The notes beneath the pieces are model-generated. The model was given only the letters and a program-made list of their open reading frames with translations, had not been told where the DNA came from and searched no databases. Positions 4,701 through 26,809 of a stretch of 33,627 nucleotides of DNA are shown piece by piece. Both the position numbers and the translations under genes were made by a program. Every line of letters begins with the position of its first letter. Positions within the stretch are counted from its first letter, which is position 1. The DNA is from a phage, in NCBI GenBank assembly GCA_012551655.1, contig GCA_012551655.1_3034.1; one strand, written 5' to 3'.

Positions 4701-5634
4701 AGACACAACACGTTCTACTGTATTTGAAGTTGGTGATGAAACGTCTAATCATTTTTATTCTCAGCGCAATAAAGCTGGAAATATAACATTTAATATCAAC
4801 GGTACGGTAACACCTATAAATGTTAATGCTTCAGGAACATTGAATGCAAATGGCGTAGCAACATTTGGTAATTCAGTCACTGCAACTGGTGAAATTATTT
4901 CTCGAAGCGCAAATGCTTTCCGTGCTATTAGCGGAAATTATGGTTTCATTGTTCGCAATGATGGATCAGTAACGAATTTTATGCTTACTGCATCGGGTGA
5001 TCAGACTGGCGGATTTAATGGATTGCGTCCTTTAGCTATCAATAATGCATCTGGTCAAGTAACGATTGGCGAAAGCTTAATTATTGCCAAAGGTGCTACT
5101 ATAAATTCAGGCGGTTTGACTGTTAACTCGAGAATTCGTTCTCAGGGCACTAAAACATCTGATTTATACACCCGCGCGCCAACATCTGATACAGTAGGAT
5201 TCTGGTCAATTGATATTAACGATTCAGCCACTTATAATCAATTCCCTGGTTATTTTAAAATGGTTGAAAAAACTAATGAAGTGACTGGACTTCCATACTT
5301 AGAACGTGGTGAAGAGGTTAAATCTCCTGGTACATTGACTCAGTTTGGTAACACACTTGATTCGCTTTACCAAGATTGGATTACTTATCCAACAACACCA
5401 GAAGCGCGTACCACTCGTTGGACACGCACATGGCAGAAAACCAAAAACTCTTGGTCAAGTTTTGTTCAGGTATTTGACGGAGGTAACCCTCCTCAACCGT
5501 CTGATATTGGTGCTTTACCATCTGATAATGCTATAATGGGTAATCTTACTATTCGTGATTTCTTACGAATTGGTAATGTTCGCATTATTCCTGACCCAGT
5601 GAATAAAACTGTTAAATTTGAATGGGTTGAATAA
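1765..5634 (+). CDS. 34: Long tail fiber proximal subunit gp34 (1289 aa)
   Basis: 1289-aa ORF, same length as T4 gp34; late promoter upstream; followed by 35-36-37-38; internal ~38-aa repeats (ITPKKLNERTATETRRG...IATQ). Confidence 0.95.
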   Translation: MAEIKRKFRAEDGLDAGGDKIINVALADRAVGTDGVNVDYLIQENTVQQYDPTRGYLKDFVIIYDNRFWAAINDIPKPAGAFNSVRWRALRTDANWTTVSSGPYQLKSGESISVDTAAGNDITFTLPSSPIDGDTIVLQDIGGKPGVNQVLITAPVQSIVNFRGQQVRSVLMTHPKSQIVLIFSNRLWQMYVADYSREAVVVTPASLYQAQSNDFIVRRFTSASAINIKLPRFANHGDIINFVDLDKLNPLYHTIVTTYDETTSVQEVGTHSIEGRTSIDGFLMFDDNEKLWRLFDGDSKARLRIITTNSNIRPNEEVMVFGANNGTTQTIELQLPTDISVGDTVKISMNYMRKGQTVKIKAAGEDKIASSVQLLQFPKRSEYPPETKWVTVQELVFNGETNYVPVLQLAYIEDSDGKYWVVQQNVPTVERVDSLNDSTRARLGVIALATQAQANVDLENSPQKELAITPETLANRTATETRRGIARIATTAQVNQDTTFSFADDIIITPKKLNERTATETRRGVAEIATQQETNAGTDDTTIITPKKLQARQGSESLSGIVTFVSTAGATPASSRELNGTNVYNKNTNNLVVSPKALDQYKATPTQQGAVILAVESEVIAGQSQEGWANAVVTPETLHKKTSTDGRIGLIEIATQSEVNTGTDYTRAVTPKTLNDRRATESLSGIAEIATQVEFDAGVDDTRISTPLKIKTRFNSTDRTSVVALSGLVESGTLWDHYTLNILEANETQRGTLRVATQVEAAAGTLDNVLITPKKLLGTKSTEAQEGVIKVATQSETVTGTSTNTAVSPKNLKWIVQSEPTWAATTLIRGFVKTSSGSITFVGNDTVGSTQPLESYEKNGYAVSPYELNRVLANYLPLKAKAADTNLLDGLDSSQFIRRDIAQTVNGSLTLTQQTNLSAPLVSSSTATFGGSVSANSTLTISNTGTATRLIFEKGPQTGTNPAQTMTVRVWGNQFSGESDTTRSTVFEVGDETSNHFYSQRNKAGNITFNINGTVTPINVNASGTLNANGVATFGNSVTATGEIISRSANAFRAISGNYGFIVRNDGSVTNFMLTASGDQTGGFNGLRPLAINNASGQVTIGESLIIAKGATINSGGLTVNSRIRSQGTKTSDLYTRAPTSDTVGFWSIDINDSATYNQFPGYFKMVEKTNEVTGLPYLERGEEVKSPGTLTQFGNTLDSLYQDWITYPTTPEARTTRWTRTWQKTKNSWSSFVQVFDGGNPPQPSDIGALPSDNAIMGNLTIRDFLRIGNVRIIPDPVNKTVKFEWVE
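3150..4210 (+). repeat. Intragenic array of about 9 degenerate ~110-nt repeats inside gene 34
   Basis: Recurring nucleotide blocks (atcactcctaaaaagct..., actgaaactcg(c/t)agaggt...) encoding repeats of (I/V)TP(K/E)xLxxRxATE(T/S)xxG(I/V)AxIAT(Q/T). Confidence 0.7.
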
Positions 5635-5642
5635 GAGGTATT

Positions 5643-6761
5643 ATGGAAAAATTTATGGCAGAGTTTGGACAAGGATATGTCCAAACGCCATTTTTATCGG
5701 AAAGCAATTCAGTAAGATATAAAATAAGTATAGCGGGTTCTTGCTCGCTTTCTACTGCAGAAGGACCATACGTTAAATTTCAGGATAATCCTGTTGGAAG
5801 TCAAACATTTAGCGCAGGACTTCATTTAAGAGTTTTTGACCCTTCTACAGGAGCATTAGTTGATAGTAAGTCATATGCTTTTTCGACTTCAAATGATACT
5901 ACATCAGCTGCTTTTGTTAGTTTCATGAATTCTTTTTCAAACAACAGACTTGTTGCTATATTAACCAGTGGAAAGGTTAATTTTCCTCCTGAGGTAGTAT
6001 CTTGGCTAAGAGCCGCGGGAACGTCTGCTTTTCCATCTGATTCTATATTGTCAAGATTTGACGTATCATATGCTGCCTTTTATACTTCTTCTAAAAGAGC
6101 TATTGCATTAGAACATGTTAAACTAAGTAATAGAAAAAGCACAGATGACTATCAAACTATTTTAGATGTTGTATTTGATAGTTTAGAAGACGTTGGAGCT
6201 ACAGGATTTCCTAAAAGAACATACGAAAGCGTTGAGCAATTTATGTCAGCGGTTGGTGGAACTAATAACGAAATTGCACGTTTACCAACTTCATCCGCGA
6301 TAAGTAAACTCTCTGATTATAATTTAATTCCTGGCGATGTTCTTTATCTTAAAGCACAGCTATATGCTGATGCCGATTTACTTGCGCTTGGAACTACAAA
6401 TATATCTATCCGTTTTTATGATGAATCGAATGGATATATTTCTTCAACACATGCTGAGTTTACTGGACAAGCTGGGTCATGGGAATTAAAGGAAGATTAT
6501 GTAGTTATTCCAGAAAATGCAGTAGGATTTACGATATATGCACAAAGAACTGCCCAAGCAGGTCAAGGAGGCATGAGAAATTTAAGCTTTTCTGAAGTAT
6601 CAAGAAATGGCGGCATTTCAAAACCTGCTGAATTTGGCGTCAACGGTATTCGCGTTAATTATGTCTGTGAATCCGCTTCGCCTCCAGATATAATGGTACT
6701 TCCTACACAAGCATCGTCTAAAACTGGTAAAGTGTTTGGGCAAGAATTTAGAGAAGTTTAA
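5643..6761 (+). CDS. 35: Long tail fiber hinge connector gp35 (372 aa)
   Basis: 372-aa ORF as in T4 gp35; SD agagg before ATG; position between 34 and 36. Confidence 0.9.
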   Translation: MEKFMAEFGQGYVQTPFLSESNSVRYKISIAGSCSLSTAEGPYVKFQDNPVGSQTFSAGLHLRVFDPSTGALVDSKSYAFSTSNDTTSAAFVSFMNSFSNNRLVAILTSGKVNFPPEVVSWLRAAGTSAFPSDSILSRFDVSYAAFYTSSKRAIALEHVKLSNRKSTDDYQTILDVVFDSLEDVGATGFPKRTYESVEQFMSAVGGTNNEIARLPTSSAISKLSDYNLIPGDVLYLKAQLYADADLLALGTTNISIRFYDESNGYISSTHAEFTGQAGSWELKEDYVVIPENAVGFTIYAQRTAQAGQGGMRNLSFSEVSRNGGISKPAEFGVNGIRVNYVCESASPPDIMVLPTQASSKTGKVFGQEFREV

Positions 6762-16902: not shown

Positions 16903-17043
16903 TTACCATACTAGTGAATGTAGTGCCATAATAACATCAGAAATGAAAAGCACGACTTGAATTAATCCGAACATTATTCCGTGATATAACGCTACCAATA
17001 AAGTAGCAAGGGCTAGTGAATAGCCCAAGATTTTCTTAATCAT
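16903..17043 (-). CDS. Hypothetical 46-aa hydrophobic membrane peptide immediately upstream of 52
   Basis: MIKKILGYSLALATLLVALYHGIMFGLIQVVLFISDVIMALHSLVW; stop 4 nt before the 52 ATG (52 has no good SD, so coupling is plausible); own SD weak. Confidence 0.4.
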   Translation of the reverse strand: MIKKILGYSLALATLLVALYHGIMFGLIQVVLFISDVIMALHSLVW

Positions 17044-17194
17044 TAGTAGATAACAACACAAATGTTAAATATGCACACATACCCTGGGCTAAAGCTTGTG
17101 AAAACACACTGCTAGCATCGATACAGATAGTTAAAACACATGCTACTATCCAACAAATAAATGAAATAACTCCTAATAATTTTGCGATATTCAT
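17036..17194 (-). CDS. Ac-like small membrane protein, copy 1 (52 aa)
   Basis: Track ORF 17036..17224 trimmed to ATG at 17194 with GAGGAG SD; MNIAKLLGVISFICWIVACVLTICIDASSVFSQALAQGMCAYLTFVLLSTND; size and position of T4 ac. Confidence 0.55.
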   Translation of the reverse strand: MNIAKLLGVISFICWIVACVLTICIDASSVFSQALAQGMCAYLTFVLLSTND

Positions 17195-18502: not shown

Positions 18503-18616
18503 TCACATAAATCCAAAGTAAACGTTTAATACATCAATCATTAAAACGATTGGGAATATACTCAAAACTATTAGTATTATAACTACATTCCATATAGCTT
18601 TAATAATCTTTTTCAT
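18503..18616 (-). CDS. Hypothetical 37-aa membrane peptide
   Basis: ATG at 18616 directly after promoter leader and SD GGAGGA: MKKIIKAIWNVVIILIVLSIFPIVLMIDVLNVYFGFM; the 82-aa track ORF is an N-terminal over-extension across the promoter. Confidence 0.45.
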   Translation of the reverse strand: MKKIIKAIWNVVIILIVLSIFPIVLMIDVLNVYFGFM

Positions 18617-18644
18617 TTTCTGTTCCTCCGTAGTTGATAGGGTA

Positions 18645-18674
18645 ATAGTACCACGGAAGAACAGTCTTGTAAAC
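18645..18674 (-). promoter_or_regulatory. T4-type early promoter
   Basis: GTTTAC (18674-18669), 18 bp, TACTAT (18650-18645), leader tatcaactacggagga. Confidence 0.5.
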
Positions 18675-18681
18675 AACTTTT

Positions 18682-18780
18682 TTAAAAATATTCGTAATAA
18701 ATGTGAATACCAACTACTACCGCTGAAACCTGTGCAACCCACCACGCACAAGCAATAAGTACAGAATTCAAAATTTTCAT
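18682..18780 (-). CDS. Hypothetical 32-aa hydrophobic peptide
   Basis: MKILNSVLIACAWWVAQVSAVVVGIHIYYEYF; ATG overlaps stop of the upstream 28-aa ORF (ATGA). Confidence 0.3.
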   Translation of the reverse strand: MKILNSVLIACAWWVAQVSAVVVGIHIYYEYF

Positions 18781-23649: not shown

Positions 23650-23679
23650 ATTATACCACATCCTTGTGGTAAAGTAAAC
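23650..23679 (-). promoter_or_regulatory. T4-type early promoter for rIIA.1-rIIA, overlapping the 3' end of gene 39
   Basis: GTTTAC (23679-23674), 18 bp, TATAAT (23655-23650). Confidence 0.55.
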
Positions 23680-25496
23680 TACTGGCTCATCCATTCTTTA
23701 CGAAGGTCAGCATTATCTCCCATGAGCATTTCAAAAAGCTCTTTCCAGTTCTCAGGAAGTTTAACAACATCATATACTGGATTTTGAATCATCTCACGAT
23801 ATTCAGATTTTTCCAAAGAGCCAAGTCCTTTAATATAACGGATGCTATGTTTAGGTAGAGCATCTTTGGCACTCTCATATTCAGCGACTGTATAAAACCA
23901 TTCTTGTTTTTTACCGACCTGAGCGATGATTACAGGAGTTTTGACAAAGCGAATTCGTCCTTGCTCAAACAATTCTGGCCAATTACTAAAAAATCCAAGC
24001 AGAGAAGGATAAATGCTTCCTAGACCATCATGGTCAGCATCAGTCATAATAGCAATATTATGATAATTCAAGTTTTCAGCTTTTTCACCGAGAACTAATC
24101 CAGTGATTGCGCAAATATCAAATAGTTCTTTGTTTTTAAGCATATCAGCATATGACATACCCCAACTATTAAGAACTTTACCACGCAATGGATAACCACC
24201 ATGAAGTTCTTTATCACGAACATCAATAAGATATCCGATAGCCGAATCACCCTCAGTCAAGAAAAGAGTCGTGTCAGCATCTTTACCACAAAGATTCGCT
24301 TTAATATGTTTATGAACCTTAGCTTTAGAAGCCTTTTTAGCTGCTTTTGTTTCTGCTGCTTTTTCTGCTGCCAATTTACGAGCCAAAGCAGCTTCAATAA
24401 TCGGCATTAGAATTGCTTCATTATTTAGAATAGCACGTGAAATCTTTTTAGCATCAAGCTGAATATGACTACGGATTTCACCAAATGGAGAAGTCAAACG
24501 CTCTTTAGTTTGAGAATCAAATCGCATGTTTTTCATATCACGAACAAACATAACGATAGTCAAACATTCTTTAACACGTGCTTTAGTTACATCAATTTTG
24601 AATTTACGTTTGATTTGTGGAATAAGGTCTTCACAAATATCATCCATAACACAGTCAATGTGATGGCCACCATTCTTAGTGTGAATGTTATTCACATAAG
24701 TTAATTGACGAAATCCATCCGGTGAACGACCAACCGCAATAGAACAATTTTCTTGTTCTTGAACAATAGCATGTTCATCATACTGTCGTGCATATTTCTT
24801 AAAATTACCCTGAACCTTTTTACCATTAAAGGTAAATTGAATATCAGGATAAACAACAGCAAGTGTCTGGAGACGATCTAGTGTAATGTCAAGATAAACT
24901 TGGGACAGCTCATTAGTTTCAAATGACATAAAATCAGGAATGAAAGTAACACGAGTTCCTTTCCATTTTCCTGGAATAGTTTCCCATGATTTATTTTCCA
25001 TGCCATTTGAACAACGAACTACAATATTATTTTGACCATCGCCAGTTTCACCAACAAACATCACAGAAAAAATGTTAGTTAAACTAGAACCAACACCGTT
25101 CATACCGCCGGTGACGCGTTCTTTATCATCACCGAAGTTACCACCTGCTTTTGGAATAGTCCATGCAGCAACAGGACCAGGAATTTCTTCACCGGTAGGT
25201 GTTTTAACCATCGCTTGTGGAATACCGCGACCGTTATCTTCAACTGTTACTTGATTGTTTTTAATAGTAACGTTAATTTTATTTGCGAATTTAAACTTAG
25301 TACGAATACCTTCATCTACTGAGTTATCGATAATTTCATCAATAAGCTTAACAAGACCAGGTACATACTGAACACTTTCCCATTTACCAAACAGAAAGCG
25401 CTCATGCATTTCATTAGCAGAAGAACCAATGTACATGCCGCTACGCTTTTTGATATGTTCAATATCGCTCAGAATTTTAATTTCATTCTTAATCAT
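23679..25496 (-). CDS. 39: DNA topoisomerase II large subunit gp39, unsplit (605 aa; GyrB-like ATPase plus Toprim)
   Basis: Track ORF begins at GTG; ATG at 25496 with GAGGA SD. Motifs EIIDNSVDE and DNGRGIP (GHKL ATPase), EGDSA and DADHDG (Toprim). Single continuous ORF. Confidence 0.9.
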   Translation of the reverse strand: MIKNEIKILSDIEHIKKRSGMYIGSSANEMHERFLFGKWESVQYVPGLVKLIDEIIDNSVDEGIRTKFKFANKINVTIKNNQVTVEDNGRGIPQAMVKTPTGEEIPGPVAAWTIPKAGGNFGDDKERVTGGMNGVGSSLTNIFSVMFVGETGDGQNNIVVRCSNGMENKSWETIPGKWKGTRVTFIPDFMSFETNELSQVYLDITLDRLQTLAVVYPDIQFTFNGKKVQGNFKKYARQYDEHAIVQEQENCSIAVGRSPDGFRQLTYVNNIHTKNGGHHIDCVMDDICEDLIPQIKRKFKIDVTKARVKECLTIVMFVRDMKNMRFDSQTKERLTSPFGEIRSHIQLDAKKISRAILNNEAILMPIIEAALARKLAAEKAAETKAAKKASKAKVHKHIKANLCGKDADTTLFLTEGDSAIGYLIDVRDKELHGGYPLRGKVLNSWGMSYADMLKNKELFDICAITGLVLGEKAENLNYHNIAIMTDADHDGLGSIYPSLLGFFSNWPELFEQGRIRFVKTPVIIAQVGKKQEWFYTVAEYESAKDALPKHSIRYIKGLGSLEKSEYREMIQNPVYDVVKLPENWKELFEMLMGDNADLRKEWMSQ

Positions 25497-25523
25497 CACT
25501 TATCCTCGTTTGGTTTCGGGAAT

Positions 25524-25547
25524 ATTATACTCCGGTAATCATAAAGC
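25524..25547 (-). promoter_or_regulatory. Candidate MotA-dependent middle promoter for gene 39
   Basis: Minus strand aGCTTTA (MotA-box-like, one mismatch to TGCTTtA), 12 bp, TATAAT (25529-25524); no GTTTAC -35. Confidence 0.4.
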
Positions 25548-25548
25548 T

Positions 25549-25566
25549 AAAGGCCCGAAGGCCTTT
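25549..25566 (-). other. AAAGGCC-UUCG-GGCCUUU hairpin between the lipoprotein gene and the gene 39 promoter
   Basis: 7-bp stem, UUCG loop on the minus-strand RNA; short U-run only. Confidence 0.45.
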
Positions 25567-25826
25567 TATTTAAAACGGATAGTCGAATCCTTGAAGAATA
25601 GACCAGAACATACGGTTCCTTCTACTTTCTGCCCGGTAGGTCCAATAGCGCGAAATCCAGTATGTTGGAAATCATTTTCAGAGCAACCGAACCAATTGTA
25701 TCCAGTGATTTCAATATTAGTAAAACCGCTTGATGACAAAATTTTGGTTGCATTATCAGCATCAGTACATCCTGCTAAAGACACTGCTAATACTAATGCT
25801 GCGATAGAACGATTAATATATTTCAT
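25566..25826 (-). CDS. Hypothetical small lipoprotein (86 aa)
   Basis: ATG at 25826 gives MKYINRSIAALVLAVSLAGCTDADN...: signal peptide with lipobox LAGC; the track start at 25838 is TTG. Confidence 0.55.
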   Translation of the reverse strand: MKYINRSIAALVLAVSLAGCTDADNATKILSSSGFTNIEITGYNWFGCSENDFQHTGFRAIGPTGQKVEGTVCSGLFFKDSTIRFK

Positions 25827-25830
25827 AATT

Positions 25831-26202
25831 TCACTCAAATTTAATGGCTTGAAGAAGACTAATAATTCTCAAGCGACTTCTTTCATCTTTAACTGTAAAA
25901 GAAAGAGGGTCACCAGATTTCATAGTGATGGTGCATCCAAAATCAAAATCTTCTGTAACTTCTTCGAAGAAGTCAAATTCTTCATCATAAATTAGAACAT
26001 TACTCTGAAAGCTGTGAAGAATTTTTCCATCATTTCCAGATGCTGTACTAATCATTGTAACATTATGACCTTTCATATCTTCAACGATAAATTCGCTTGT
26101 AGATATTACTGCATTAATAGAACCGTTCCTATGAATAGCAGAAAATAGATATTTCTTTTCTTCACCTTCGCGAACACGATATTTCTTACCGATTTTAAAC
26201 AT
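25831..26202 (-). CDS. Hypothetical 123-aa protein
   Basis: ATG at 26202, 2 nt after the upstream stop. Confidence 0.55.
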   Translation of the reverse strand: MFKIGKKYRVREGEEKKYLFSAIHRNGSINAVISTSEFIVEDMKGHNVTMISTASGNDGKILHSFQSNVLIYDEEFDFFEEVTEDFDFGCTITMKSGDPLSFTVKDERSRLRIISLLQAIKFE

Positions 26203-26204
26203 AA

Positions 26205-26381
26205 TTACCCTTTAAGTAAGTCGTAAAATCCACCATTCACATGCTTAGGAGCAGAAGGCCGACGAGTAGACAAACGATGACATTTAGGGCAAACATCATT
26301 TTCTCGTTCAGAAATCTTTTTAATTTTTTCATATTCATGCCCGCAATCTTCGGATTGGCATTTATAATCATACATTGGCAT
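26205..26381 (-). CDS. Hypothetical 58-aa zinc-ribbon protein (two CxxC pairs)
   Basis: MPMYDYKCQSEDCGHEYEKIKKISERENDVCPKCHRLSTRRPSAPKHVNGGFYDLLKG; AAGGAA SD; tightly packed between neighbours; not in the ORF track. Confidence 0.5.
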   Translation of the reverse strand: MPMYDYKCQSEDCGHEYEKIKKISERENDVCPKCHRLSTRRPSAPKHVNGGFYDLLKG

Positions 26382-26383
26382 AA

Positions 26384-26809
26384 TTATTCCTTAAAGTGTG
26401 CTTTCAACATCTGATACAAGGACCATGCCTGTTCATTATTTTCAATAGTAACTTTCATGACCGGGAATTCTGTGAAATCTTCTATTTGTTCTTGCTCTTT
26501 CTCTTCCTGCTCTTGCTCTTCAGCTGCCTGGTATGGATTTTCAACTTCATCAAAGAACCCAGCTTCGCTAGTAGAAAGCCAGATAAAGTTTTCGTCAAGG
26601 ATATCACCATGTGTTGCATATCCAACTGTGCCAGTAGATGTCACAATTTTAGTAGGACGACCAAGATGGTCAACATCTAAAATTTTAAAAGGATGCATAC
26701 CTAAACGGCGCGCATAGATTCCGTTATCAGTATGATCTTTAATAAAATTTTCTTGAGCTTGTTTATTTTTAAATTGATACCATTTATTAACTTCAAATTT
26801 AATAGCCAT
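26384..26809 (-). CDS. Hypothetical 141-aa protein (size and position of T4 goF)
   Basis: 141 aa, acidic [12 protein letters not shown] tract; assignment by size and synteny only. Confidence 0.55.

Follow-up and report, generated by a model that had tools for sequence, protein, structure and literature searches.

Gene 39.1 of bacteriophage T4 has come to be annotated as a 7 kDa, cytoplasmic-looking open reading frame (ORF) because both its sequence and its start are wrong in NC_000866, the T4 reference genome on which proteomics and CRISPRi guide design are based. Read from the present window, a 33,627-nucleotide stretch of phage DNA (NCBI GenBank assembly GCA_012551655.1, contig GCA_012551655.1_3034.1), the corresponding gene appears to encode the precursor of a small lipoprotein. 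The reading that we place just on the probable side, taken as a whole, is that the ORF is the 39.1 ortholog, an accessory lipoprotein gene at the end of an early transcription unit, whose product may bind a conserved envelope component on its own and serve in envelope protection. Any specific downstream role is well short of probable.

Identity and genomic setting of the gene

The ORF lies on the minus strand, where it extends from an ATG at 25826 to a TAA at 25566-25568 and comprises 86 codons (coding sequence 25566-25826, stop codon included). The product begins with MKYINRSIAALVLAVSLAGC and continues with TDADNATK; its full 86-residue sequence is MKYINRSIAALVLAVSLAGCTDADNATKILSSSGFTNIEITGYNWFGCSENDFQHTGFRAIGPTGQKVEGTVCSGLFFKDSTIRFK. 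Over the 901 bases around the ORF, identity reaches 99.9% with Escherichia phage JY01 and 90-99% with about 500 other phage records, most of them from Tequatrovirus. Judged from sequence, the window belongs to a Tequatrovirus, and the ORF is orthologous to gene 39.1 of T4. It is annotated under that name in PP01, T6 and JS10, and in PHROGs it matches phrog_902, the T4 gp39.1 family of unknown function, across residues 1-86 (E 4.1e-37). The gene itself is no discovery, being already present in databases, where a few records label it a lipoprotein: it is a 'putative lipoprotein' in JLBYU31 and in Stenotrophomonas phage Moby, and one UniRef cluster is named 'Lipoprotein'. No functional study of gp39.1, or of 39.1 as a lipoprotein, was found in the literature.

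Pairwise dN/dS values were obtained by the Nei-Gojobori method for the copies in the window, T4, T2, T6, PP01, JS10, Klebsiella Jiaodavirus and Raoultella Slopekvirus. Wherever dS was unsaturated they fell between 0.03 and 0.14, which marks a real gene under purifying selection. Its start is best placed at the ATG, which is conserved in T4 while the sequence upstream of it differs there. An alternative TTG start (25836-25838, minus strand; MSEIMKY...) is used in the JLBYU31 annotation and reaches into the end of the preceding gene. It is probably not used, and its use would leave the lipoprotein signal unchanged.

The local gene order is motB, cef, goF, 39.2, a 123-residue goF-like gene, 39.1, 39, rIIA.1 and rIIA. 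The order 39.2-39.1-39 is common to PP01, T6, T2, T4 and JS10, to which the window adds the goF-like gene. This paralog (25831-26202, minus strand; phrog_622) ends in a TGA situated 4 nt before the 39.1 ATG; its matches to the goF family are weaker, and it is found in T6, T2, PP01 and JY01 and is absent from T4.

Downstream, a UUCG-tetraloop hairpin that begins within the 39.1 stop codon (AAAGGCC-UUCG-GGCCUUU; 25549-25566, minus strand) is followed by a U-rich tract. Its fold is weak (z -1.95) and a generic terminator scan did not flag it; related phage records annotate 'terminator' and 'promoter' features under the same stretch. The hairpin is a probable terminator or RNA-stabilising end of an early transcription unit. 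Directly after it and before gene 39 lies a MotA-box-like TTTAGCTTTA, separated by a 12-nt spacer from TATAAT (25524-25551, minus strand). The pair resembles the T4 middle-promoter consensus and probably forms a middle promoter for gene 39, placed after the end of the early unit. Gene 39 itself, a topoisomerase gene (23679-25499, minus strand), is a single ORF of 606 residues equivalent to 39 plus 60, with a likely start at the ATG at 25496. Like T2 and T6, the window lacks the division into 39 and 60 that is specific to T4, and with it mobA, 60.1 and the 50-nt translational bypass.

The first-pass annotation had assigned the gene to the early region, and both its position in the motB-cef-goF-39.2-39.1 cluster and expression data from T4 agree. 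In the supplements of a multi-omics time course, T4 39.1 RNA falls into the early class, and the protein is detected and belongs to the late accumulation class (PMC9697503). Another small exported early protein appears to be encoded elsewhere in the window, in the ndd-denB region (about 18539-18736, minus strand), where the closest relative, JY01, has a 65-residue gene product annotated as 'periplasmic protein' (JY01_100).

A part in lysis, as an outer-membrane spanin-like component or as an accessory of lysis timing, may be considered at this point. Like the o-spanins, gp39.1 is a predicted outer-membrane lipoprotein, and the homolog in Raoultella phage Rpl1 is encoded four genes upstream of the endolysin. 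The T4 spanins, however, are pseT.3 and pseT.2, and Moby has a separate annotated i-/o-spanin pair elsewhere in its genome. Furthermore, no i-spanin is adjacent to or embedded in 39.1, no transmembrane-protein gene stands on either side, and the modelled domain is folded and neither proline-rich nor extended. With the RNA placed in the early and not the late class in the T4 supplements (PMC9697503), a lysis function is highly unlikely.

Signal peptide and lipobox

Residues 1-19 (25770-25826, minus strand) have the makeup of a lipoprotein signal peptide, with an n-region MKYINR, an h-region SIAALVLAVSL and the first three residues of a lipobox. The lipobox, L-A-G-C at residues 17-20 (25767-25778, minus strand), ends in Cys20, which is predicted to be acylated and with which the mature protein would begin. 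PROSITE rule PS51257 describes such signals by a Lys or Arg within the first seven residues, an uncharged h-region, the pattern [LIVMFWSTAG](2)-[LIVMFYSTAGCQ]-[AGS]-C, and a Cys at position 15-35. The rule was used as a regular expression on the ORFs of the window and of relatives. In 39.1, K2 and R6 lie within the first seven residues and the uncharged ALVLAV-SL-A-G-C places the Cys at position 20. The LPAM_1 profile matches the signal peptide weakly (E 0.096).

Across 571 start/ORF combinations in the window, the lipobox expression matched three ORFs. The other two matches are spurious: a Ser/Cys-rich ORF (26457-26717, plus strand) that runs antisense to goF, and an ORF (17036-17194, minus strand) that lies within gene 52 but out of its frame. 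Both indicate the false-positive rate of the pattern alone. Although the expression is not very specific when used by itself, the lipobox of 39.1 stands above chance because it is conserved family-wide. The rule held for 31 of the 32 close relatives and for 106 of the 141 more distant ones despite diverging signal-peptide sequence, lipobox and signal peptide are still conserved in relatives down to 42-48% identity, and Cys20 is near-invariant (at least 90%) in the alignments. The N-terminus is thus very likely a type II (lipoprotein) signal peptide, for which lipidation and cleavage by LspA are predicted. The earlier proposal of a small lipoprotein gene with a signal peptide and a lipobox Cys is upheld by these comparisons.

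The residue that follows the Cys offers a prediction about sorting. In the Enterobacteria, Asp at the +2 position is the Lol avoidance signal, a rule established in the E. coli literature. The protein encoded in the window has Thr at +2 and lacks the avoidance Asp, and among the 106 lipobox-bearing relatives the +2 residue is Thr in 76 and Ser in 17 (93 of 106 together) and never Asp. By the E. coli rule, gp39.1 is therefore predicted to be sorted to the outer membrane in a Lol-dependent manner, and it is probably anchored there.

Errors in the T4 reference sequence

The T4 reference presents a different protein. In NC_000866/AF158101, 39.1 is a gene of 198 nt and 65 codons that starts at an internal ATG (MLINATK...) and has no signal peptide, and UniProt Q01435 (Y00C_BPT4), which is T4 gp39.1, is named a 7.2 kDa protein. 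In the reference entry L-I-N-S takes the place of the lipobox, and reading on past the signal peptide is prevented by a 1-nt insertion that closes the frame. These records would favor the alternative that 39.1 is no lipoprotein at all and that an internal start yields a small cytoplasmic protein. The first-pass annotation had named a start of this kind as the event that would remove the signal peptide. Such a start does correspond to the T4 reference annotation, where it can be traced to errors in the reference sequence.

Comparison of NC_000866 with the resequenced T4 genome MT984581 reveals 14 differences, including indels, over 974 aligned bases. All of them are confined to positions 5588-5766 of the record, a patch of about 180 nt that corresponds to approximately 25730-26300 of the window and that also cuts 39.2 from 58 to 45 residues. 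The faulty version of 39.1 is limited to the old Sanger-derived records M89919, X06220, AF158101 and NC_000866. In a 111-nt stretch, at least ten T4-type genomes that were deposited independently are shorter by one base and have 92.9% identity to the reference; the T4-type genomes that lack the patch include T4T, KJ477684-6, MT984581, OZ209023 and OZ209057. Both of the resequenced T4 genomes inspected, MT984581 and T4T, encode the intact 86-residue lipoprotein. Because the differences are clustered and occur in the old Sanger-derived records only, the patch looks like a set of reference errors and not biology. Together with a frame in the window that is open from the ATG at 25826 and a signal peptide kept at 42-48% identity, this distribution of the L-I-N-S reading and the frameshift leaves the cytoplasmic alternative with next to no likelihood.

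The errors also bear on genetic data. A CRISPRi-ART screen of T4 scored 39.1 as 'Not Fit', that is, without a fitness defect on knock-down (PMC11879866). The 39.1 guides shown in supplements 8, 15 and 25 of that study cover positions 5565-5605 of the T4 record, on the mis-annotated internal start, and they contain erroneous reference bases. Since these guides target a faulty start and bases absent from resequenced T4, the negative score for 39.1 is weak and unreliable.

The mature domain

The mature chain, residues 20-86 with Thr at +2 (25569-25769, minus strand), consists of one helix and four beta strands in the AlphaFold models, which are confident and show a compact alpha+beta domain (pLDDT 79.5 and 82.3). 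Conserved motifs along it are ITGY, CSxDD, HTGF, GTVCSG and STIRF. Besides Cys20, the near-invariant positions are Leu30, Gly34, the T-G-Y at the end of strand 1, Cys48, Asp52, T56-G57-F58, Ala60, Gly65, G70-T-V-C73-S-G, Lys79 and T82-I-R84. Cys48 (codon 25683-25685, minus strand) is located in the loop that joins strand 1 to strand 2 and Cys73 (codon 25608-25610, minus strand) at the end of strand 3. Of the 106 lipobox-bearing relatives, 79 contain two Cys beyond that of the lipobox, neither more nor fewer. Since this pair is conserved, the two residues may well be joined by a disulfide in the periplasm.

Searches of Pfam, NCBIfam and PDB sequences with 39.1 returned matches at the level of the signal peptide or of chance only. 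A set of 141 diverse family members matched no Pfam family beyond the lipid-attachment motif; hits to DUF6491 came from six of the 141, at E 0.065 or worse. In structure searches, Foldseek comparison of the 39.1 model with the PDB gave no match, and matches in BFVD were restricted to other phage lipoproteins and hypothetical proteins, all of the same family. The likeness to the cystatin, PepSY and VirB8 (NTF2-like) periplasmic domains is one of common alpha+beta topology only, as none of the three has a sequence-profile relationship or a Foldseek match to 39.1. In the main rival to an envelope-protecting role, a cystatin/PepSY-like domain would inhibit a periplasmic hydrolase or protease. Its target could be a conserved host peptidoglycan hydrolase or protease or, as for Spackle, an incoming tail lysozyme, and premature lysis would thereby be averted. 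We regard an inhibitor of this kind as unlikely.

Distribution of the family

By exhaustive profile search, the gp39.1 family comprises 2229 cluster representatives at E <=1e-3 and 1123 at E <=1e-10, clustered at 50% identity; a word-indexed search returned 50 relatives. Homologs of 39.1 are found in 1066 GenBank phage records and homologs of gp39 in 1499, and RB69 has no 39.1 at the site upstream of gene 39. The gene is therefore a frequent accessory and not a core gene. The homolog-bearing phages infect Escherichia, Klebsiella, Enterobacter, Serratia and others, and also include phages of Stenotrophomonas, Sinorhizobium and Rhizobium and Pseudomonas jumbo phages, so that gamma- and alpha-proteobacterial hosts are both represented.

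Outside phages the family is rare. A DNA search of 5426 complete E. coli genomes gave zero matches to 39.1, and three plasmids carry a homolog. In about 185,000 species genomes, a restrictive peptide pattern built from a 7-sequence alignment identified five loci of the family. Four are on contigs of 6-39 kb from metagenome-assembled genomes (MAGs), and the fifth is on a 2.6-Mb MAG contig, in a mobile-element island beside an integrase, TnpB, a GIY-YIG protein and ThyX. On these sequence searches, the family is essentially phage-borne.

No neighbor of 39.1 is conserved across eight unrelated phages and contigs, among them Moby, phiM7, RHph_N2_6, DT01 and metagenomic T4-like contigs. This lack of a constant partner gene suggests that gp39.1 acts alone. 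In Rhizobium phage RHph_N2_6 (3947-8189) the next gene after the homolog encodes a membrane protein of the prohibitin (SPFH) family, and rIIA lies some 2.4 kb downstream. The T-even phages likewise have rIIA about 2.5 kb downstream of 39.1, and the likeness may be a coincidence.

The means of attachment varies within the family. In some relatives the lipobox is replaced by an N-terminal cytoplasmic extension and transmembrane helix or by a type IV pilin-like N-methylation leader, and one member has two tandem copies of the domain (variants are P0089, P0118, P0127, P0140 and P0126). Because some relatives exchange the lipobox for another anchor or leader, the constant feature of the family appears to be a tethered periplasmic domain.

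Proposed mechanism and significance

If it follows the established Gram-negative lipoprotein pathway, the 39.1 precursor would leave the cytoplasm through Sec, receive its lipid from Lgt, lose the signal peptide to LspA immediately ahead of Cys20 and then be acylated by Lnt. The 66-residue mature domain, modelled as a helix on a four-stranded sheet with a probable Cys48-Cys73 clamp, would then face the periplasm. There it may act alone, with a conserved part of the Gram-negative envelope, as opposed to a phage-specific receptor, as its binding partner. The likeliest outcome would be protection of the infected cell at the level of the envelope, either by excluding a secondary attack independently of the receptor or by keeping wall and outer membrane stable until the latent period ends. 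On laboratory hosts, 39.1 would be dispensable.

The best-studied virulent phage, T4, thus carries a conserved and expressed envelope protein that has no Pfam family and is represented by some 2200 sequence clusters. It may have been overlooked in part because the T4 reference hides its signal peptide. With a corrected sequence, 39.1 becomes a defined candidate for existing T4 genetics. If its binding partner is a conserved envelope component, a receptor-independent mechanism would join the ways in which phages control the host envelope, and the protein could be used to probe that component.

Relation to other phage envelope proteins

The closest point of reference is gp39.1 of T4. The copy in the window is 98% identical to the resequenced T4 copy, lies as in T4 between 39.2 and 39, and shares with it the terminator hairpin and the promoter of gene 39 that follow; the 123-residue goF-like gene, which T4 lacks, is the difference in gene order. 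More broadly, the copies in T2, T4, T6 and PP01 are 97-98% identical, and their differences are limited to lipobox position -2, residue 29, I4V in PP01 and G75S in T6. The receptors of these four phages are FadL/OmpF for T2, OmpC/LPS for T4, Tsx for T6 and OmpC for PP01.

Receptor masking, one of two roles that the first-pass annotation had named as examples for small phage lipoproteins, does not sit well with this pattern. On this view, modelled on Llp of T5 and on Cor, the lipoprotein attaches from the periplasmic side to the outer-membrane receptor that its own phage uses, so that superinfecting or progeny phage can no longer adsorb. T5 Llp, which blocks FhuA, does resemble gp39.1 in being a small early phage lipoprotein of the outer-membrane type whose mature chain has about 60-66 residues and extra Cys. 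However, llp abuts the receptor-binding gene oad/pb5, whereas 39.1 lies among early genes of DNA and RNA metabolism with no receptor-binding-protein gene adjacent, and in hhalign only 18 columns of signal peptide align between the two proteins. The near-identical copies do not co-vary with the different receptors, a low dN/dS is unlike that of an arms race, and the family extends to phages that infect Stenotrophomonas, Rhizobium, Sinorhizobium and Pseudomonas. Masking of the receptor is therefore improbable, and the near-identity of the copies, the low dN/dS and the spread over alpha- and gamma-proteobacterial phages favor a conserved host target instead. A receptor-independent role in the envelope, superinfection exclusion included, is possible.

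Spackle (gp61.3) offers a comparison from within T4. It is, like 39.1, an early, secreted, small accessory protein that acts in the envelope, and it is annotated as periplasmic. Spackle differs in being soluble, without a lipid anchor and all-helical in its published structures, and hhalign relates the two proteins with a probability of 3% and over the signal peptide only. A broader generalisation, tentative and somewhat doubtful as it stands, would make the gp39.1 family a stand-alone lipoprotein tethered in the periplasm and employed by large virulent myoviruses of many Proteobacteria against a universal Gram-negative envelope machine or peptidoglycan. In T4, gp39.1 would then be a third factor of envelope exclusion or protection beside Imm and Spackle.
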